Assembly: GCA_000432255.1 (NCBI GenBank)
Contig: HF989914.1
Coordinates: 11,270-75,269, forward strand
Source: Acholeplasma sp. CAG:878
GTDB taxonomy: Bacteria > Bacillota_I > Bacilli_A > RF39 > UBA660
Direction of reading: 5' to 3'
Length of the DNA stretch: 64,000 nt
The notes under the pieces are model-generated. The model was given only the letters and a program-made list of their open reading frames with translations, was not told the origin of the DNA and made no database searches. Both the position numbers and the translations under genes were made by a program. Below are positions 8,009 through 61,200 of the stretch, one piece after another (position 1 is the stretch's first letter; each line of letters starts with the position of its first letter).

Positions 8009-8093
8009 TGGTGCGTGAAAAGAGACTTGAACTCTCACGATTATTAATCACAGACACCTCAAGCCTGCGTGTCTACCATTCCACCATTCACGC
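8009..8093 (-). tRNA. tRNA-Leu (anticodon GAG), class II with long variable arm, CCA encoded
   Basis: Minus strand: GCGTGAA-TG-GTGG-AATGGTAGA-CACG-C-AGGCT(T)TGAGG... The acceptor stem GCGTGAA/TTCACGC is perfect. The anticodon stem CAGGC/GTCTG encloses loop TTGAGGT (anticodon GAG). It has a long variable arm, T-arm GAGAG-TTCAAGT-CTCTT, discriminator A and CCA. Confidence 0.85.
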
Positions 8094-37097: not shown

Positions 37098-37397
37098 CTA
37101 TTTTTTCTTAAAAAAAGTTTTTACAATATAACATTCAAATGCTACATAATTAGCAAATAATAACCATAATAATACAATTTCAAATATACCACTTGAATAC
37201 ATACTAATAATTCCTGAAACACTACTTGGAAAATATGTATTTATAAAACCATTAATTGGTGGAATATTGTTTCCTAAAAAATCAATTAATCTTAAAAATA
37301 TATCTACAAATGCTACATAATATACAAAACTTCCAAATCTTTTGAATATTAATACGGCTAATGCTCCTAAAACTAAAATTATAACTACTACATCCAT
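37098..37397 (-). CDS. Hypothetical small membrane protein
   Basis: ORF only, 99 aa, 3 predicted TM helices. Confidence 0.4.
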   Translation of the reverse strand: MDVVVIILVLGALAVLIFKRFGSFVYYVAFVDIFLRLIDFLGNNIPPINGFINTYFPSSVSGIISMYSSGIFEIVLLWLLFANYVAFECYIVKTFFKKK

Positions 37398-37413
37398 TTT
37401 ATTTCTTCCTTCC

Positions 37414-37917
37414 TTACTCCATAATGTAATCTACCGTATATGGATAACCATACACTAAACTAAAATCACAATTTATTTTTGTTGTTTTATCATCTTTTTT
37501 ATAAACAACTATTTTTATATTTTCATCTGTATTTAATTTGTTTTCCAATAGTTTATTATACTCTTCTACACTTACAATGTAAGTTAATGTATTTAAAATA
37601 TAATTTTGACTTTCTAAAGTACCATTTTTAATCAAGTTATTAATATCTTCTAATTTTAGAGCAAAATTATATTCTTTAAAATCATTTTTCGAATATGTTT
37701 TTCCATTATATGTTATTTTAAAATCTTTAACTGTTATTTCATTATTTATAACATAGTAATACTTTGTATAGTTATCACTAATTGGTTTTTCTTCTTTAAA
37801 AGAATTAATGTAAATAAAACAAAACACAAAAAATATAGCATATAAAGCTAAAATTATAATAGCTCTATATCTTTTATTCGCCCATATTTCTTTTAGTTTT
37901 TTGAATTTTTCTTTCAT
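37414..37917 (-). CDS. Hypothetical protein with N-terminal TM anchor
   Basis: ORF only, 167 aa. Confidence 0.5.
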   Translation of the reverse strand: MKEKFKKLKEIWANKRYRAIIILALYAIFFVFCFIYINSFKEEKPISDNYTKYYYVINNEITVKDFKITYNGKTYSKNDFKEYNFALKLEDINNLIKNGTLESQNYILNTLTYIVSVEEYNKLLENKLNTDENIKIVVYKKDDKTTKINCDFSLVYGYPYTVDYIME

Positions 37918-37918
37918 T

Positions 37919-38872
37919 TTACATTAGCATCCTTCCAAGAAGAGTTTGAAAACCATTCATAAAATCTTTGGCGTTCATTTTCTTTTTACCTTCTAATTGA
38001 ACGACTTTAAAGATAATTTCTCCGTTTCCCACTTTAACGCCAAAACCATCATCATAAACGCTTGTAATTTCTCCATTAAGTCCCATTGGATAGTTATTTG
38101 AAAGTGAACTTTCAAATACTTTTAATCTTTTGCCTTCAAAAAAGCAATAAGCACCTGGAAATGAATTTAATCCTCTTATTTGATTATAAATTTGTCTTGC
38201 ATTTTTATTGAAATCAATTCTTTCATCCTCTGGTTTAATATTGAAAGCATATGTTGCTTCACTTGCTTCTTGTCTTTCTCTACTATTAGTTCCATTAATT
38301 ATACTAGGTAAAGTTTCTAATAATAAATCTCTTCCTAAGAGCATTAATTTATCATGCAAAGATGAGGATGTATCAGTATCGAGTATTTCAATACTCTTTT
38401 TGCTAATTATATCTCCTTCATCCATTCTCTCATTCATGTACATAATTGTTATACCAGTTTCTTTATATCCATTCATAATTGCTCTTTGAATAGGAGCTCC
38501 ACCTCTTAATTTAGGAAGTAATGAAGCATGAACATTAATACATCCTAATCTAGGACAATCAAGTAACTCTTTAGGAATGATTTGCCCATATGCACAAGTT
38601 ATAATTAAATCAGGTTTTAAATCTATTATTTCTTGATATTCTTCTTTTATTTTATTAGGTTGTAAAACTAAAATTGTGTGTTCTTTTGCTACTTTTTTTA
38701 CTGGTGTTTCAATTAAATTACCATGTTTATCTTTTGCTCTATCAGGTTGTGTGACAACTGCTCTTACTTTATAATTTTCTATCAATCCTTCTAATACAGG
38801 AACAGCAAAATAAGGTGTTCCCATAAAAACAATTTGTAATTCTTTTTCAACTGTTATATTAGATAAATCCAT
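37919..38872 (-). CDS. fmt: Methionyl-tRNA formyltransferase
   Basis: IVFMGTPYFAVPVLEGL..., HASLLPKLRGGAPI formyltransferase motif. Confidence 0.9.
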   Translation of the reverse strand: MDLSNITVEKELQIVFMGTPYFAVPVLEGLIENYKVRAVVTQPDRAKDKHGNLIETPVKKVAKEHTILVLQPNKIKEEYQEIIDLKPDLIITCAYGQIIPKELLDCPRLGCINVHASLLPKLRGGAPIQRAIMNGYKETGITIMYMNERMDEGDIISKKSIEILDTDTSSSLHDKLMLLGRDLLLETLPSIINGTNSRERQEASEATYAFNIKPEDERIDFNKNARQIYNQIRGLNSFPGAYCFFEGKRLKVFESSLSNNYPMGLNGEITSVYDDGFGVKVGNGEIIFKVVQLEGKKKMNAKDFMNGFQTLLGRMLM

Positions 38873-38975
38873 TCTTAATCACCCATTAACATTATACCAT
38901 TTAGTTATGTTTTTTACAAACATTTATTTTATGGTAAAAGAAAATTCTAGATTTAAACTAGAATTAATCTAATGC

Positions 38976-39095
38976 TTTAATTATAATACGATAAGCAAAA
39001 CTATATATGTTTGTAGTATCACTATATTTTTGTAGTTTGAAAGAAAATGGTGTATCATTTCCATCACATACTACTGTATTACTTATATTTGCCAT
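38976..39095 (-). CDS. Small ORF (39 aa, MANISNTVVCDGNDTPFSFKLQKYSDTTNIYRFCLSYYN) with strong SD
   Basis: An AAAGGAAG SD lies 8 nt upstream of the ATG, in the 267-bp fmt/RNB-protein intergenic region. It is unsupported by homology. Confidence 0.2.
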
Positions 39096-39139
39096 ATTTA
39101 GTCTTCCTTTTGATACGTTCATTATTTTAACAAAAAATC

Positions 39140-41140
39140 CTAAATTAGGCTCTTTTGTTTTTCCTTAGTTCTATGTTCAACTCTTCGTTGATTTGCTAGA
39201 ACAATAATTTTTTTAATTTCTTGTTGCCATTCTTCACTTTTATATTTTCTTTCGTTGATATAAAAATCATCAATCAGTTTTTGTAAAGTTAATGTAATAT
39301 AACTGTCAATAGGACTAAACAAATCTAAAAAATATGCTTGCCCACAACCATCATGACCTATATTTTCACTAGCGTAATAAGCTTTATTAGTATCTTCACA
39401 TATAATCTGATAAATTACTTTAGCCGTATTTCTATCTAATTTTCCCATCAAACTGTTTAGAACATTCATATCTCTTACAAATGAATCTTCATCTTGATGA
39501 GCTTGAACACGATAAATGCATGGTAATCCTTTTTTAGTAAAATAAGTTCCAACTGCTCTTGATACTTTAGATAAATACATTTTTTCTAATGTTTTTCCAA
39601 AATCTTTATCATCTAAATCAAAATCATTTAACAATGTATAATAACTAAATGTTACTTCTTTATTTGGTAATATAAAGTTATCATATGAATATATTTTATC
39701 TAAACTAACAATACTTCTATATATATCAAAACTTGCTATTCTACCATTATTTGATAGTTCTATTTCATATGTTATAGCAGGTCTTTTAATCATTGGTTCA
39801 AATGATAAATAATTTGTTATAATATCCATTGGAAAAATCGGATTTTCGCCTGTAAACATCTTATTTCTAAAATAAGATTCTAATTCATCATATTTTACAT
39901 AAGCACTTATATCAATAGTATGAACTTTAATTACCACTCTTCCTTTTTCATTAATATTTGCTGAATAACATTTATTAATATAAGAATTATCTAGACTAGT
40001 TATAGCAAAAGTAGGAGAATCTTCAACTCTTTCATTTAAATCCATTTGCCTTCTATATAAATATCCAAATGAAGAATAATCAGGATTTATAAAGTCTTCA
40101 ATGTTGTTTTCTTCTTGTTTACCTAAATTATAAATACTTTTTAAAATTTCCGGATATTTTTTATAGTGCTTAATTGTTTCAACAAATTCTTCGATTTTAA
40201 TTTGAATTAAAGCTTCATATTCTTTATTAAAATAAGGATGATTGACAAATAAATTAAATATTTTTTCATAATATTCTTTAGGAATATATGTAGAAGTTTG
40301 ATTTTTAAGCTCAATTAAGCAACTTTCAAAATAATAATCTAATATTACAAAAATAATGTTTTGATTATTTATAGAGATATTTAAGATATCTGGCATTAAT
40401 TCGATTAATCTTTTGATTTTATCATAATTATTTAAAGTGTTTAAAAAGTATTTGATTATATCTATTCTATTATCGTAAAAAGTAATTTCTTCATATTTAA
40501 AATCTAATATAGAATAAATTTCTTTTAATTTATTAACTAAAGCTTTTTTGTTTTGTTTTTTTAATTCTCTTCTTTTAATGATTGTTTGGTGTTTTAAACT
40601 GTTCAACAACGGTTCGATTTCTTCTTTTAATTTACTATCAGAACTACTATAAATAACCATTAATCTAATAGCAACTTGCTTTAATAAATCTAGGTCAACT
40701 AAAGTATTTAATAAATATAAATATAGTGATGTTAATTCTGATATTTTAAATGTTTCAATTTCCGTAGTTTTAGCTTTTTCCAATAAATCAGAAGATAAAG
40801 TCACTTCTTTTTTTTCATCTTTATCTACTGCTTTTCTCTCATTAAAAGAATTTATCTTTTTAGCGTGGCTTAAATATTCTTGTAAAATTTGCTTTTGAAA
40901 ATTACAAAACAAAACTGCTTCTTTTACATCTGGTTTTAATCTCAACTTTTGTTCTTCTTTATAATAATTATTTTTATTCTTTTTATATTCATTTATTGCT
41001 TTATTTAATTTTTCAATTTCTCTTTCAATTTCTTCTAAAAGTTGCCTTGAAACTTCTTTATCAAATGGTTTTAGAAAAGGATATTTTAAAACCAATTCTC
41101 TCATTTTATTAATACTAAAATTAAACTTCATATAATTCAC
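39140..41140 (-). CDS. RNB-domain (RNase II/R-like) protein with long N-terminal coiled-coil; catalytic motifs degenerate
   Basis: C-terminal half matches RNB landmarks: ...KVHTIDISAYV..., IFPMDI, CIYRVQAH, ENIGHDGCGQAYFLDLFSPIDSYITL (cf. GHFGL...YTHFTSPIRRYxDL). The acidic DxxxxxDDA block is replaced by SLDNSYINKC and RR by DS. Confidence 0.6.
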   Translation of the reverse strand: MNYMKFNFSINKMRELVLKYPFLKPFDKEVSRQLLEEIEREIEKLNKAINEYKKNKNNYYKEEQKLRLKPDVKEAVLFCNFQKQILQEYLSHAKKINSFNERKAVDKDEKKEVTLSSDLLEKAKTTEIETFKISELTSLYLYLLNTLVDLDLLKQVAIRLMVIYSSSDSKLKEEIEPLLNSLKHQTIIKRRELKKQNKKALVNKLKEIYSILDFKYEEITFYDNRIDIIKYFLNTLNNYDKIKRLIELMPDILNISINNQNIIFVILDYYFESCLIELKNQTSTYIPKEYYEKIFNLFVNHPYFNKEYEALIQIKIEEFVETIKHYKKYPEILKSIYNLGKQEENNIEDFINPDYSSFGYLYRRQMDLNERVEDSPTFAITSLDNSYINKCYSANINEKGRVVIKVHTIDISAYVKYDELESYFRNKMFTGENPIFPMDIITNYLSFEPMIKRPAITYEIELSNNGRIASFDIYRSIVSLDKIYSYDNFILPNKEVTFSYYTLLNDFDLDDKDFGKTLEKMYLSKVSRAVGTYFTKKGLPCIYRVQAHQDEDSFVRDMNVLNSLMGKLDRNTAKVIYQIICEDTNKAYYASENIGHDGCGQAYFLDLFSPIDSYITLTLQKLIDDFYINERKYKSEEWQQEIKKIIVLANQRRVEHRTKEKQKSLI

Positions 41141-41160: not shown

Positions 41161-42057
41161 CTATTTACGCATGTTATCGCTATTCATTTCGATAACATCA
41201 CATAATTGTTTAACCCTCTCAATTATTCTTTTTGCTTTCACAACTTCTTTTCCATTAAAACTTAAGTGTTGTTCTAAATCATCAATACTTAAATTAGAAG
41301 TAAAAAATGTTGGTAGTTTTTCATCCATTCTATACTGTAAAATAGGACATAATATTTCATCTCTTGACCATGCACTGATTGCTTCAGCGCCAATATCATC
41401 GATTAATAAAATTGGTGTTTTTTTGACATTTAGTAATTTATCAGAAAAATCGCTATCAAATGAACTTTTTAATTCTTGTAAAAATTCAGAAAAGAAAACG
41501 ATTGTACTTCTTACTTGTTTTTTTGCTAACTCATTTAACATGGCAGTTATTAAATATGATTTACCACATCCAAAATTACCATATAAATATAATCCTTTTG
41601 AAACATTTGGATAGTTATTTTTAAAATCATTTAACCATCTAATTGTATCTTTTCTTTTAAGATATTTTCCATCTATATTACTCCAAGATGCATTACTAGC
41701 ACCTACTGGAGTGTTATAATATTTAACATATTTTAAATGATTATTTTCTTTATTTTTATTATTTGTATAATGACATGCCTTATATCTAAAGACTAATGTA
41801 TTATTAACAACTTTAGGTAAGTATGTATAACCTCTTATTTTATTCAAACATTCCATTAATCCGCTACAATTTAAACAATTATTATATTCTATAGTACTTT
41901 CTTCTAAATTAGATGTATGCTTCATCATTTCTTCTTTAGGTAGATTAAATTTATTAACGAAATTTTTAAATTGTTCATTTTCTAAACTTTTTTCATATTC
42001 GTAAGAAAGTTCCGTTTTTTTATTATATCCATTAGTAAGTTCGCTTGCTTTAATCAT
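41161..42057 (-). CDS. dnaI: Primosomal helicase loader DnaI
   Basis: N-terminal Zn-binding CLNCSGLMEC, AAA+ Walker A GNFGCGKSYL, Walker B LLIDDIG. Confidence 0.85.
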   Translation of the reverse strand: MIKASELTNGYNKKTELSYEYEKSLENEQFKNFVNKFNLPKEEMMKHTSNLEESTIEYNNCLNCSGLMECLNKIRGYTYLPKVVNNTLVFRYKACHYTNNKNKENNHLKYVKYYNTPVGASNASWSNIDGKYLKRKDTIRWLNDFKNNYPNVSKGLYLYGNFGCGKSYLITAMLNELAKKQVRSTIVFFSEFLQELKSSFDSDFSDKLLNVKKTPILLIDDIGAEAISAWSRDEILCPILQYRMDEKLPTFFTSNLSIDDLEQHLSFNGKEVVKAKRIIERVKQLCDVIEMNSDNMRK

Positions 42058-43294
42058 TAATACCTACTCCTAATTCTTTTTCAAAAGCTCTCAATTCTTC
42101 TTCACTCATCAAATCTGATTTTATTTCTTTATCTAACCAATCGGGTAATTTTTTAGATTGTTGTTTTATTTTTTTCTTATTTTCACCTTTGGCAATATTA
42201 ATAGCATCGGCTACCGTATTTATATTACATCTTATCCATTGTGAGGCTATTTTTTCAACATATGCTTTATTTAATTTATTATTATTTATTCTTAAAACAT
42301 AATCTATTAAAACATTTACAACTCCTGGTTTTAGATTTAAATCGATTAACAAATATTCGATTAATTTTAAATCAGCTCTAGTTGGTTCACAACCACCATT
42401 TTTGCTCGTTAAAAATTCTTTTGGACTTGCTTCTTCTAATTCTTTTATATATAAATCTAATTTACTTCCTCCATTAGTATTACTACGCCAAGCATAAGGT
42501 TGTTCTCTATCAACAATCGCTGGAACATGATTTTTATTTTCAAACTTATAGTAATTTCTACAATTTGTTTTTAATACATCAGTTTCAATTTTTTTATTAC
42601 AACCTAGGGAATCTTCAATAATCGTAGTCATCGTTTTGTTATCATAACCATAAACTAAAGCTAATTGATAAATTAACATTCTTGTGTTGCTATCAATGCT
42701 TTTATAATCAATCAACTCACTTGGAATATTTCCTAATACTTCTCTTAAGTCGATTGTTGGCTCAAAATCTAATCCTAAATGTTTTACTTTGACAATATTT
42801 TTATTATTAATTCTTTTAGTTTGTGTAAAACTAAATACATCTCTAAATGTTTTACTTATATCTTTATATTCACTTAAATTGATATTTGGAATACTAAATT
42901 TATTAACAATGTTTTCATATGCTTTTTTACCTACATTGTTAAATAAAGATGTATCTAAAATTGGATTATTTATAAACTCATAAGCAGTAAGTGGTGAGTA
43001 TAATTCATATATATATTCATTTAAATCACCTTTTTTTACATATGTTTTAAGTAAACCTAAGGCTTCTAATTTTTCTCTTGCTTTACATATATCTTCTAAT
43101 TTTAATTGCATAGTATTTACTATATCATAATGATTAATATTTTCATTACCAATAAATCCCCATAAAGTAACATATAAATTAAAAGCAATGCTTCCCATTA
43201 TTGGTTGATATAAAAGGGATAACACTTCTCTATTCTGATCATTTAAAAATGTATGATTGATTACTATAAAACTATCTAGTGGTAGTACATCCAT
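42050..43294 (-). CDS. dnaB: Replication initiation/membrane attachment protein DnaB (Firmicutes DnaB/DnaD family)
   Basis: Conserved dnaB-dnaI pairing with an 8-nt overlap; DnaB/DnaD-like C-terminal region. Confidence 0.7.
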   Translation of the reverse strand: MDVLPLDSFIVINHTFLNDQNREVLSLLYQPIMGSIAFNLYVTLWGFIGNENINHYDIVNTMQLKLEDICKAREKLEALGLLKTYVKKGDLNEYIYELYSPLTAYEFINNPILDTSLFNNVGKKAYENIVNKFSIPNINLSEYKDISKTFRDVFSFTQTKRINNKNIVKVKHLGLDFEPTIDLREVLGNIPSELIDYKSIDSNTRMLIYQLALVYGYDNKTMTTIIEDSLGCNKKIETDVLKTNCRNYYKFENKNHVPAIVDREQPYAWRSNTNGGSKLDLYIKELEEASPKEFLTSKNGGCEPTRADLKLIEYLLIDLNLKPGVVNVLIDYVLRINNNKLNKAYVEKIASQWIRCNINTVADAINIAKGENKKKIKQQSKKLPDWLDKEIKSDLMSEEELRAFEKELGVGIND

Positions 43295-44943: not shown

Positions 44944-45765
44944 ATGTTTAAAAAATTATTAAAACTAACAAAAGATATTACTGAATTATATCAAAAATTA
45001 GGTTACTTAGAATGTCAAGGAAGAAAAAATAGTCAAGAATGGCATTTATCAAAAGCTGAACTTAAAGAAAAATTAGAAGAAGAAAAGAAATTTTACGAAA
45101 ATCTTGAAGCAATCAGTACCGAAGAATTAGATGAAATAAAATGTGATGATATTGTAATGGCAAGAATTAAAAGTAAACTTACAAAAGTTCAAATAAAGCA
45201 AATGGAAGATGAAATGTTAACAATTGCAGAAGAAAACGGCAATTTACCTTATATTAAATCAGTTCTTTTTAAAGTAGGTAAACTTAATAATTGCATTGAT
45301 AATGATATTACTATGAATGCTTTAGTTTATTTAAACGAATACTTACCTTATATAGGTTCAAAGGATTTAGCGATTAGTTTTATGTATGAAAAATTTAGAA
45401 TTGCTGCTGCTAGTATAGATGATTGTGAAAATTTATTGTTTGACGCAAATTTTGAACTACCAAATACTGCTTATACAACATGTCAAACATGTGGTAGATT
45501 ATTAGGTCTTGATGATAATACTATAAATGAAGCAATTGATTCTAATTGTTTAAACCTTTTAACTAGTTTACTTAATATAAATATAAAAGAAGATACATTT
45601 GAAGAAGTAAAACCATATTATATGTGTCAAATTAAAGCAAGAGTTACTTTACTTAGTGATGAAGGACTAAATCAACTTTCCAATTTATTAGAAGAAAGTA
45701 ATAATACTATAATAAGTTGTTTAATGGAAAAAACAATAAAAGAACTTAAAGGAAAAACTTACTAA
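44944..45765 (+). CDS. Hypothetical protein
   Basis: 273-aa ORF with a GGTG SD (gtgaggtgacttATG); no family recognised; followed by a hairpin terminator. Confidence 0.55.
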   Translation: MFKKLLKLTKDITELYQKLGYLECQGRKNSQEWHLSKAELKEKLEEEKKFYENLEAISTEELDEIKCDDIVMARIKSKLTKVQIKQMEDEMLTIAEENGNLPYIKSVLFKVGKLNNCIDNDITMNALVYLNEYLPYIGSKDLAISFMYEKFRIAAASIDDCENLLFDANFELPNTAYTTCQTCGRLLGLDDNTINEAIDSNCLNLLTSLLNINIKEDTFEEVKPYYMCQIKARVTLLSDEGLNQLSNLLEESNNTIISCLMEKTIKELKGKTY

Positions 45766-45851: not shown

Positions 45852-47495
45852 ATGGAAAATAAATTTACTAAAGTATTTGCTTTAGGTGGTTTGGGTGAAG
45901 TTGGAAAAAATATGTATTGCATTATGTATGACAAAGAAATCATTATTACTGATGCAGGTATTACTTTTCCACAAGAGATTAAGGGTGTTGATTATATAAT
46001 TCCAGATTTCACATTTTTAAAGAAAAATGAAAAATATATTAAAGCTCTATTTATAACCCATGGTCATGAGGATCATATAGGAGCGATACCTTTTCTTTTA
46101 AATATGGTAAACATTCCTCGTGTATATGCTCCAAACCAAGCAGTGGGTCTAATTAGAAAAAAATTAGAAGAAAGAAATATTCAATATAAAAATTTATTTG
46201 TTTATACTGAAAAAAATCATATTAAATTTAAAAATATTAGTGTTGAATTTTTTATGACAACTCACTCTATACCAGATTCACATGGTATTGTAGTTCATAC
46301 TCCAGATGGTACTATTGTAACAACGGGTGATTTTAAATTTGACTTAACACCAATTGGTCCAATGGCTAATTTACATAAAATGGCCGAAGTTGGAAAAAAA
46401 GGTGTTACTCTACTTTTAAGTGATAGTACTAATGCTTTAAATAGTGGTTTTTCAGCTAGTGAGTCAAAAGTTGATGAAGCGTTAGCTGGTATTTTTAGAA
46501 CTCATAGTGGACGTATTATAATTGCAACATTTGCTTCTAATATATACAGATTAAAACATATAGTTGATACTTGCCAAAGAAACGGTAGAAAAATCGCTGT
46601 ATTTGGACGTAGCATGGATACTAATATTGAAATATCTATTAAAGATGGTTATATTAAAAATAAAGGTATTTTTATAACACCTGAAGAAGCAAATCATTTA
46701 CCAAATAATAAAGTATGCTTGTTATGTACTGGCTCTCAAGGTGAACCACTTGCTGCTTTATCAAGAATTGCTAATGGTAGTCATAGACAAATAAAATTAC
46801 AAGCAGATGATGTAGTTGTATTTTCATCATCAGCTATTCCTGGTAATGCTATTAGTATATCAAGAACAATCAACAAATTATATTTAAAAGGTGTTAAAGT
46901 ATATACCAATACACTATTAAGTGATATTCATACATCTGGTCATGGAAGTCAAGAAGAATTAAAGTTAATGTTGCGACTAATTAAACCAAAATATTTCATG
47001 CCATTTCACGGTGAATATCGTATGCTTAAAAAACATGCTGACCTTGCTACTTTATGTGGCGTACCTAAGGAAAACACATTTGTTTTAGGTAATGGCGAAG
47101 TTTTAACTATTAAAAAAGGTATTGTTAAAAAACAAGGTACTGTTCCTGCTGGTGATATATATGTCGATGGTAATAAAATTGGTGATGTTGATAATCTAAT
47201 TATGAAAGAAAGAAAAATAATGTCTAATGATGGTATTGTTATTGTAATTATTAATACTAAAAATAATAAATTAATAACAAAACCAAGCATTGCTACTCGT
47301 GGTTTTGTAGTTGTCAATGATAATCAAGAATTACTACATGAACTTGAAAATTATGTTGAAAAAGTTATAATAAATAGTAAAAACAATGATATCAAACCAT
47401 TAGTTATTAATGAACTATCAGATTATATATTTACTAAAACTGGAAGAAAACCAATTATTATGCCTGTAATAATGGAAATTAAAAAAACACATTAA
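45852..47495 (+). CDS. rnj: Ribonuclease J
   Basis: Metallo-beta-lactamase HGHEDHIGA motif, beta-CASP and C-terminal domains; AAGGAGG SD. Confidence 0.9.
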   Translation: MENKFTKVFALGGLGEVGKNMYCIMYDKEIIITDAGITFPQEIKGVDYIIPDFTFLKKNEKYIKALFITHGHEDHIGAIPFLLNMVNIPRVYAPNQAVGLIRKKLEERNIQYKNLFVYTEKNHIKFKNISVEFFMTTHSIPDSHGIVVHTPDGTIVTTGDFKFDLTPIGPMANLHKMAEVGKKGVTLLLSDSTNALNSGFSASESKVDEALAGIFRTHSGRIIIATFASNIYRLKHIVDTCQRNGRKIAVFGRSMDTNIEISIKDGYIKNKGIFITPEEANHLPNNKVCLLCTGSQGEPLAALSRIANGSHRQIKLQADDVVVFSSSAIPGNAISISRTINKLYLKGVKVYTNTLLSDIHTSGHGSQEELKLMLRLIKPKYFMPFHGEYRMLKKHADLATLCGVPKENTFVLGNGEVLTIKKGIVKKQGTVPAGDIYVDGNKIGDVDNLIMKERKIMSNDGIVIVIINTKNNKLITKPSIATRGFVVVNDNQELLHELENYVEKVIINSKNNDIKPLVINELSDYIFTKTGRKPIIMPVIMEIKKTH

Positions 47496-61104: not shown

Positions 61105-61200
61105 CTCCTTTAATCTCAGACTCGCCATTAAGGTACATTAAATGTTTATAACCTTTTTTGTGCGGTTGTAGAGAGGTCTCTACACAGTAATTAATTTTAA
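61105..61200 (-). promoter_or_regulatory. Candidate L21-operon leader RNA structure (ribosomal-protein leader)
   Basis: A GC-rich structured segment upstream of rplU on the minus strand: TGTGTAGAGACCTCTCTACAACCGCACA (nested stems), then GGCGAGTCTGAGATTAAAGGAGG leading to the ATG. This is the position where Firmicutes carry the L21 leader. Confidence 0.3.

Follow-up and report, generated by a model that had tools for sequence, protein, structure and literature searches.

A predicted RNB-fold pseudonuclease encoded directly downstream of dnaB and dnaI in uncultured low-GC Bacillota

A gene directly downstream of dnaB and dnaI, in a 64,000-nucleotide stretch of contig HF989914.1 of Acholeplasma sp. 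CAG:878 (hereafter the window), encodes a protein that has kept the fold of the RNase II/R catalytic domain (RNB) and, judging from alignments and profile matches, has almost certainly lost its catalytic chemistry. Every residue needed for cutting RNA has been lost, which makes it probable that the protein acts by binding instead of cutting. On balance, we favor the view that it is a non-catalytic RNB-fold binding or scaffold protein which is co-expressed with dnaB-dnaI and would most likely take part in helicase loading or primosome function. The replication part of this view is suggested by gene order.

The window has a G+C content of about 25%, and its minus strand carries most of the genes. 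In the list of open reading frames, the gene appears as a 666-aa ORF (39140..41140, minus strand) starting at the GTG at 41140, and the ATG at 41131 is the likelier start. All homologues begin with MKFNFS, three codons past the mechanical start, and a GGTGA ribosome-binding site precedes this ATG; thus, the protein most likely has 663 aa (39140..41131, minus strand, stop codon included), and all residue numbers given here follow the 663-aa form. The genes upstream on the same strand are, in order, ftsY, a small ORF, ylxM (UPF0122), dnaB, and a dnaI-like gene. The dnaB gene (42050..43294, minus strand) is of the Firmicute type, encoding a replication initiation and membrane attachment protein (DnaB_2, PF07261), and it overlaps the start of the dnaI-like gene by 8 nt. 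The latter (41161..42057, minus strand; Pfam IstB_IS21 and Bac_DnaA) encodes an AAA+ helicase loader and is separated from the RNB-like gene by a 29-nt gap. No terminator-like site was detected at this junction, and the RNB-like gene has its own ribosome-binding site. An earlier note, made from the sequence alone, had described the gene as lying immediately after dnaI and co-directional with dnaB-dnaI, which is the arrangement seen here and again in distant relatives.

Downstream, a spacer of 267 nt separates the RNB-like gene (X in the gene orders below) from fmt. A promoter-like element with an extended -10 (TTGTAA-17-TGgTATAAT; 38891..38919, minus strand) lies before fmt, is conserved in relatives, and likely marks the end of the dnaB-dnaI-X unit. 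Scanning for promoters was uninformative in this AT-rich window, where 57 sites were found and 53 expected. The spacer also holds a 44-aa ORF (MANISNTVVCDGNDTPF...; 38960..39094, minus strand) with a ribosome-binding-like site. It was rejected as an operon member: in the relatives L006 and L008, the spacer is shorter by about 84 nt and lacks the ORF, which is thus probably not a gene.

Further features of the window are given as observations. Between fmt and ruvA are two small ORFs of 167 and 99 aa (37098..37917, minus strand), the shorter one hydrophobic and both without a Pfam match, and L006 and L008 have ORFs of equal length there. An RNase J-type gene (547 aa, 45852..47495) and an adjoining 273-aa ORF without a Pfam match (44944..45765) belong to the small number of plus-strand genes and are divergent from ftsY. 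The RNase J-type call rests on the positional counterpart of equal size in L006 and L008, which matches Pfam Lactamase_B, RNase_J_b_CASP, RMMBL, and RNase_J_C. The only Rfam matches at gathering level in the window are a ribosomal protein L21 leader (RF00559, 54.8 bits; 61108..61177, minus strand) and one tRNA (8012..8093, minus strand).

The RNB-like protein exceeds the Pfam RNB (PF00773) cut-off of 29.3 bits with a score of 60.8 (E = 1.8e-16), and the match falls in two stretches, one covering profile positions 5-126 and the other the C-terminal part. NCBIfam scores are far under their cut-offs, with 33.3 bits versus 597.85 for RNase R (TIGR02063) and 41 bits versus 368.6 for VacB-RNase II (TIGR00358). 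The best solved relative is RNase R of Bacillus subtilis, found with the family profile at E = 1.7e-21. The fold region, predicted to be non-catalytic, spans aa 366-663 (39143..40036, minus strand) with no S1 domain after it. The structural motifs VHTID, LPCIYR, AYY, GH, and SP..Y are retained, and the RNB landmark series that the earlier note had recognized in the C-terminal half is thus borne out.

The catalytic motifs are degenerate. Aligned without gaps, TIDGADAKDLDDAVT of B. subtilis RNase R corresponds to AITSLDNSYINKCYS, and the aspartate positions of DxxxxxDxDD, which in the active enzymes provide Mg2+ ligands and the 3'-OH contact, are occupied by T378 (D1), Y384 (D2), N386 (D3), and K387 (D4). 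This degenerate motif I (FAITSLDNSYINKCYSA; 39959..40009, minus strand) is defined from the RNase R alignment, the family table, and the translation. In the degenerate motif IV region (NIGHDGCGQAYFLDLFSPIDSYITLTLQK; 39278..39364, minus strand), the alignments show GHFGL as GHDGC, SPIRRY as SPIDSY, and VHR as LQK. Both arginines of SPIRRY are absent, including the catalytic one, which we take to be the equivalent of R500 of Escherichia coli RNase II. When the dead family was aligned with hmmalign to a profile of active RNase R, only the C-terminal motifs of the window protein could be placed, and the result was applied to that region alone. The earlier readings of the acidic cluster as SLDNSYINKC, of SPIDSY, and of GHDGC were each checked residue by residue against B. 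subtilis RNase R and were confirmed; the claim that the fold was retained and the chemistry probably lost is likewise supported, all four aspartates and both arginines being gone. Acidic residues present but shifted were also looked for. In the RNase R alignment, no shifted acidic cluster occurs in the motif I loop, where the sole acidic residue is D381, and this residue is not conserved even in orthologues with 40% identity.

A defense-system or phage origin of the gene was considered and rejected. PADLOC gave no match for the protein, the sole PHROGs match was a generic nuclease family at the RNB C-terminus, and a viral fold search (BFVD) matched only RNB proteins of giant viruses.

A word-indexed homologue search returned only eight clusters with 40-99% identity, and single-protein and profile queries likewise gave close relatives only. 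The degenerate motifs are conserved in all eight clusters, including those at 40-43% identity. The family itself came to light when 1.84 billion representatives were searched exhaustively with a profile, which gave 1139 matches. Among the best 150 of these, 74 share the N-terminal helical region, and 66 of the 74 have neither the aspartate motif nor the arginine; a further 69 match the RNB part only, 56 of them carrying both motifs and being true RNase R/II. The family thus comprises at least 66 clusters (50% identity), all metagenomic. Most of the dead members have a deletion of about five residues in the aspartate loop, and the family consensus at SPIRRY is P(L/I)(D/N)(S/N)Y or carries a one-residue deletion. 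Over an identity range of 16-92%, the degenerate motifs are conserved together with a second, non-RNB module.

Pfam RNB scores fall along a gradient within the family, from 209 bits for P0079 through about 115 for P0089, P0127, and P0128 to 61 for the window protein, and P0046, P0061, P0041, and P0034 have no Pfam RNB match; many members are thus invisible to Pfam. The only GTDB/NCBI genome with an orthologue (69% identity) is a MAG labeled “uncultured Muribaculaceae” (L010 / L004, CAZTXU010000021.1). This contig carries Bacillota-type DnaB_2/DnaI, ylxM, and ftsY, which fit poorly with a Muribaculaceae (Bacteroidota) label, and it is possibly mis-binned or mislabeled.

The structure of the protein was predicted with AF2 from a 77-sequence family alignment (model m565d848c587a; pLDDT 87.6, pTM 0.64); an earlier run from six sequences (pLDDT 60.9) was discarded. 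The C-terminal part has the three-dimensional RNB fold, and bacterial RNase R is its best match by both sequence and fold, ahead of Dis3L2 and Ssd1. The N-terminal 365 residues contain about 17 separate helices and one beta hairpin, the longest helix having 39 aa, and the N-terminal coiled-coil of about 330 aa proposed in the earlier note is therefore abandoned. Instead, the model depicts the N-terminal half as a multi-helix, alpha-solenoid-like region, for which a fold search matched only generic helical-repeat or solenoid proteins. In its first part (aa 1-215; 40487..41131, minus strand), delimited from the model and from low family conservation, helices 29-51 and 67-105 make up a long helical hairpin and residues 56-65 a beta hairpin; residues 1-200 vary in sequence and length across the family, with 0 to about 350 extra aa. 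The second part (aa 220-335; 40127..40474, minus strand) is a conserved helical module that equals the RNB core in conservation across the family and defines the family jointly with it. No CSD or S1 domain was found by Pfam at E values up to 10 or in the AF2 model, in agreement with the earlier note, and the protein ends about 50 aa past motif IV.

Gene order was compared among 14 divergent lineages. In 10 of them, dnaI is directly upstream of X with a gap of at most 29 nt or an overlap, and these 10 are less than 70% identical to each other. The dnaB-dnaI-X order occurs in the group of the window, L006, and L008 and in L004, L002, L001, L013, L011, L015, L018, L019, and L022, and the flanks of this block, before dnaB and after X, carry different genes from lineage to lineage. 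X is apart from dnaI in the remaining four lineages (L014, L017, L021, and L016) and lies near thrS in three of these. L014 and L017 have the order yqeY-X-(about 187 aa)-thrS. In L021 (4827..10866, plus strand), a 568-aa family member is followed by an RNase R-like gene and then thrS, with no dnaB or dnaI nearby; the middle gene is genuinely RNase R-like (792 aa, RNB 334 bits, weak CSD2). X has unrelated neighbors in L016. In two of the dnaI-adjacent lineages, L011 and L019, thrS is found within two genes downstream of X. Lineage L018 (8383..10047, plus strand) has a 554-aa RNB paralogue directly after the dead RNB gene, with the same helical N-module; it keeps three of the four aspartates (TIDTKRAQYLDDA), and its arginine motif is altered to SPIIER. 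From its sequence, this semi-intact paralogue may represent an intermediate or a partner.

In B. subtilis, dnaB-dnaI-ytxB-ytxC-thrS form one operon (PMC8208703). X occupies the ancestral slot between dnaI and thrS, and part of the linkage to dnaI may therefore be inherited. The genes ytxB and ytxC hold the same operon position as X does in L011 and L019. No homology between ytxB or ytxC and the RNB-like protein was detected, and Pfam finds only RNB in the latter.

Compared with bacterial RNase R and RNase II (B. subtilis RNase R, 8cdu; Mycoplasma genitalium RNase R, 7dic; E. coli RNase II, 2ix0), the RNB-like protein shares the motifs VH(I/T)xD, LP(F/C)IYR, AxY, GH, and SPI..Y, and its closest sequence relatives are bacterial RNase R. 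In contrast to these enzymes, it has neither DxxxxxDxDD nor the SPIRRY arginines, the histidine of VHR is replaced by Q, and an all-helical N-terminal region of about 365 aa stands in place of their domains, CSD1, CSD2, and S1 being absent. Mitochondrial Dss1 (6f3h) is an RNB exoribonuclease that also has non-canonical N-terminal domains, and it is catalytically active and retains S1; the N-terminal regions of Dss1 and the RNB-like protein showed no sequence relationship.

By analogy, the closest functional counterpart would be Ssd1 of yeast (7am1), which, like related fungal RNB pseudonucleases, has the RNB fold, has lost the catalytic aspartates, and is under selection. Ssd1 is a fungal pseudonuclease with a blocked channel and binds RNA on its CSDs (PMC8934651). 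The origins of the two are independent, as the RNB-like protein is bacterial and RNase R-like whereas the Ssd1 type is derived from Dis3L2 (PMC8934651, PMC8097288). Ssd1 also keeps CSD1, CSD2, and S1 and uses the CSD surface to bind RNA, whereas the RNB-like protein has none of these domains, and its gene sits in a replication operon context.

The main rival reading, a role resembling that of Ssd1 itself, seems less likely to us, although several observations speak for it. The RNB-like protein would then be an RNA-binding post-transcriptional regulator without a role in replication, and its place after dnaI would be a leftover of the Bacillota dnaB-dnaI-...-thrS operon. That X stays beside thrS where it is separated from dnaI (L014, L017, and L021), and that thrS is close by in L011 and L019, is consistent with such a leftover. 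The genuine RNase R-like neighbor in L021 and the semi-intact paralogue in L018 point to an RNA-metabolism origin and context, and Ssd1 shows that a dead RNB protein can act by binding RNA (PMC8934651). However, the CSDs through which Ssd1 binds RNA are missing here, dnaB-dnaI-X has stayed together in 10 lineages despite changing flanking genes, and co-expression is suggested by the very short gaps to dnaI or overlaps with it.

Activity retained through non-canonical residues, so that the protein would still be a nuclease or phosphodiesterase using, for example, D381 or D407 together with other side chains, is very improbable. D407, in VHTID, is nearly invariant in the family, but it belongs to the structural HIAD motif of all RNB proteins and is not a metal ligand. 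D381 varies already at 40% identity, and its loop is deleted in most members. The relatives P0079, P0089, P0127, P0128, and P0133 combine the same N-module with D1, D3, D4, and the arginine, which would suit an active enzyme; this retention indicates that the lineage descends from active enzymes, and since these semi-intact relatives share the helical N-module, that domain is older than the loss of catalysis. Against retained activity, the SPIRRY arginine is lost family-wide, and single motif-aspartate mutations abolish activity throughout the RNase II family (PMC8097288).

Selection on the gene was assessed with Nei-Gojobori estimates from unsaturated pairs. The dN/dS of the RNB-like gene is 0.15-0.17 and similar in its N- and C-terminal halves, compared with 0.08-0.12 for dnaI and dnaB and 0.07 for fmt; its non-synonymous rate is about twice that of dnaI and dnaB. 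The 663-codon frame is intact in every relative. This purifying selection argues for a pseudo-enzyme and not a decaying gene, a distinction that the earlier note had left to be checked, and the conservation of the degenerate motifs down to 40% identity agrees with it. That the gene is a decaying remnant of an RNase R gene, as the lost catalytic motifs and a Pfam score of 60.8 bits versus over 300 for true RNase R might suggest, can be dismissed in view of the intact frame, the dN/dS values, the conservation of the degenerate motifs and the non-RNB module across the family, and the confident AF2 fold.

The synonymous divergence of the region is uneven. Between the window and L006, dS is 0.22 for the RNB-like gene and 0.14 for fmt, and it is 0.02 for dnaB, 0.04 for dnaI, 0.016 for ftsY, and 0.009 for ruvB. 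The stretch concerned, examined against L006 and L008, is 38872..41140 of the window. For the pair with L006, dS in the RNB-like gene and fmt is 5 to 25 times that of the flanking genes, an excess that looks like recombination import or a local divergence hot spot.

For the favored non-catalytic binding or scaffold protein, a mechanism can be outlined. The gene would be co-transcribed with the helicase-loading genes dnaB-dnaI. In its product, a helical N-terminus that varies across the family precedes the conserved alpha-solenoid-like module, and the RNB shell that follows has lost the Mg2+-binding aspartates and the catalytic arginine; all three OB-fold RNA-binding domains of the active enzymes (CSD1, CSD2, and S1) are missing. 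The shell and the helical module may together offer a surface on which a single-stranded nucleic acid end, a protein partner, or both could dock. The setting would be DnaB/DnaI-dependent helicase loading or primosome function, either at initiation or at replication restart. Weighing against this view are the four lineages in which X is apart from dnaI, the operon of B. subtilis, given which the adjacency to dnaI could reflect inherited position and not functional coupling, and the faster non-synonymous evolution relative to dnaI and dnaB.

A more specific version, which we regard as doubtful and put forward as speculation, would make the protein a dedicated third part of the DnaB-DnaI loader in a clade of uncultured low-GC Bacillota. 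The shell derived from RNase R would grip a single-stranded 3' end (of an RNA primer, R-loop RNA, or ssDNA) and leave it undegraded, thereby guiding where the helicase is loaded during initiation or when forks have stalled. If true, bacteria would have their first RNB pseudonuclease, and the RNase II fold its first connection to replication.

To our knowledge, RNB pseudonucleases have so far been described only in fungi (Ssd1 and its relatives), and our literature search found neither a bacterial RNB pseudonuclease nor a link between RNB proteins and dnaI. The protein described here would be an independent bacterial case, with a helical N-domain in place of the cold-shock and S1 domains. It belongs to a sizeable undescribed family of which many members escape Pfam, and with semi-intact relatives among its members, the stepwise loss of activity should be traceable. 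If the link to replication proves to be only positional, the finding would still be an annotation correction, as the members of this family should not be called ribonucleases. The recurrent tight position after dnaB-dnaI gives rise to a testable hypothesis, namely that the family may provide an accessory factor of Gram-positive-type helicase loading.
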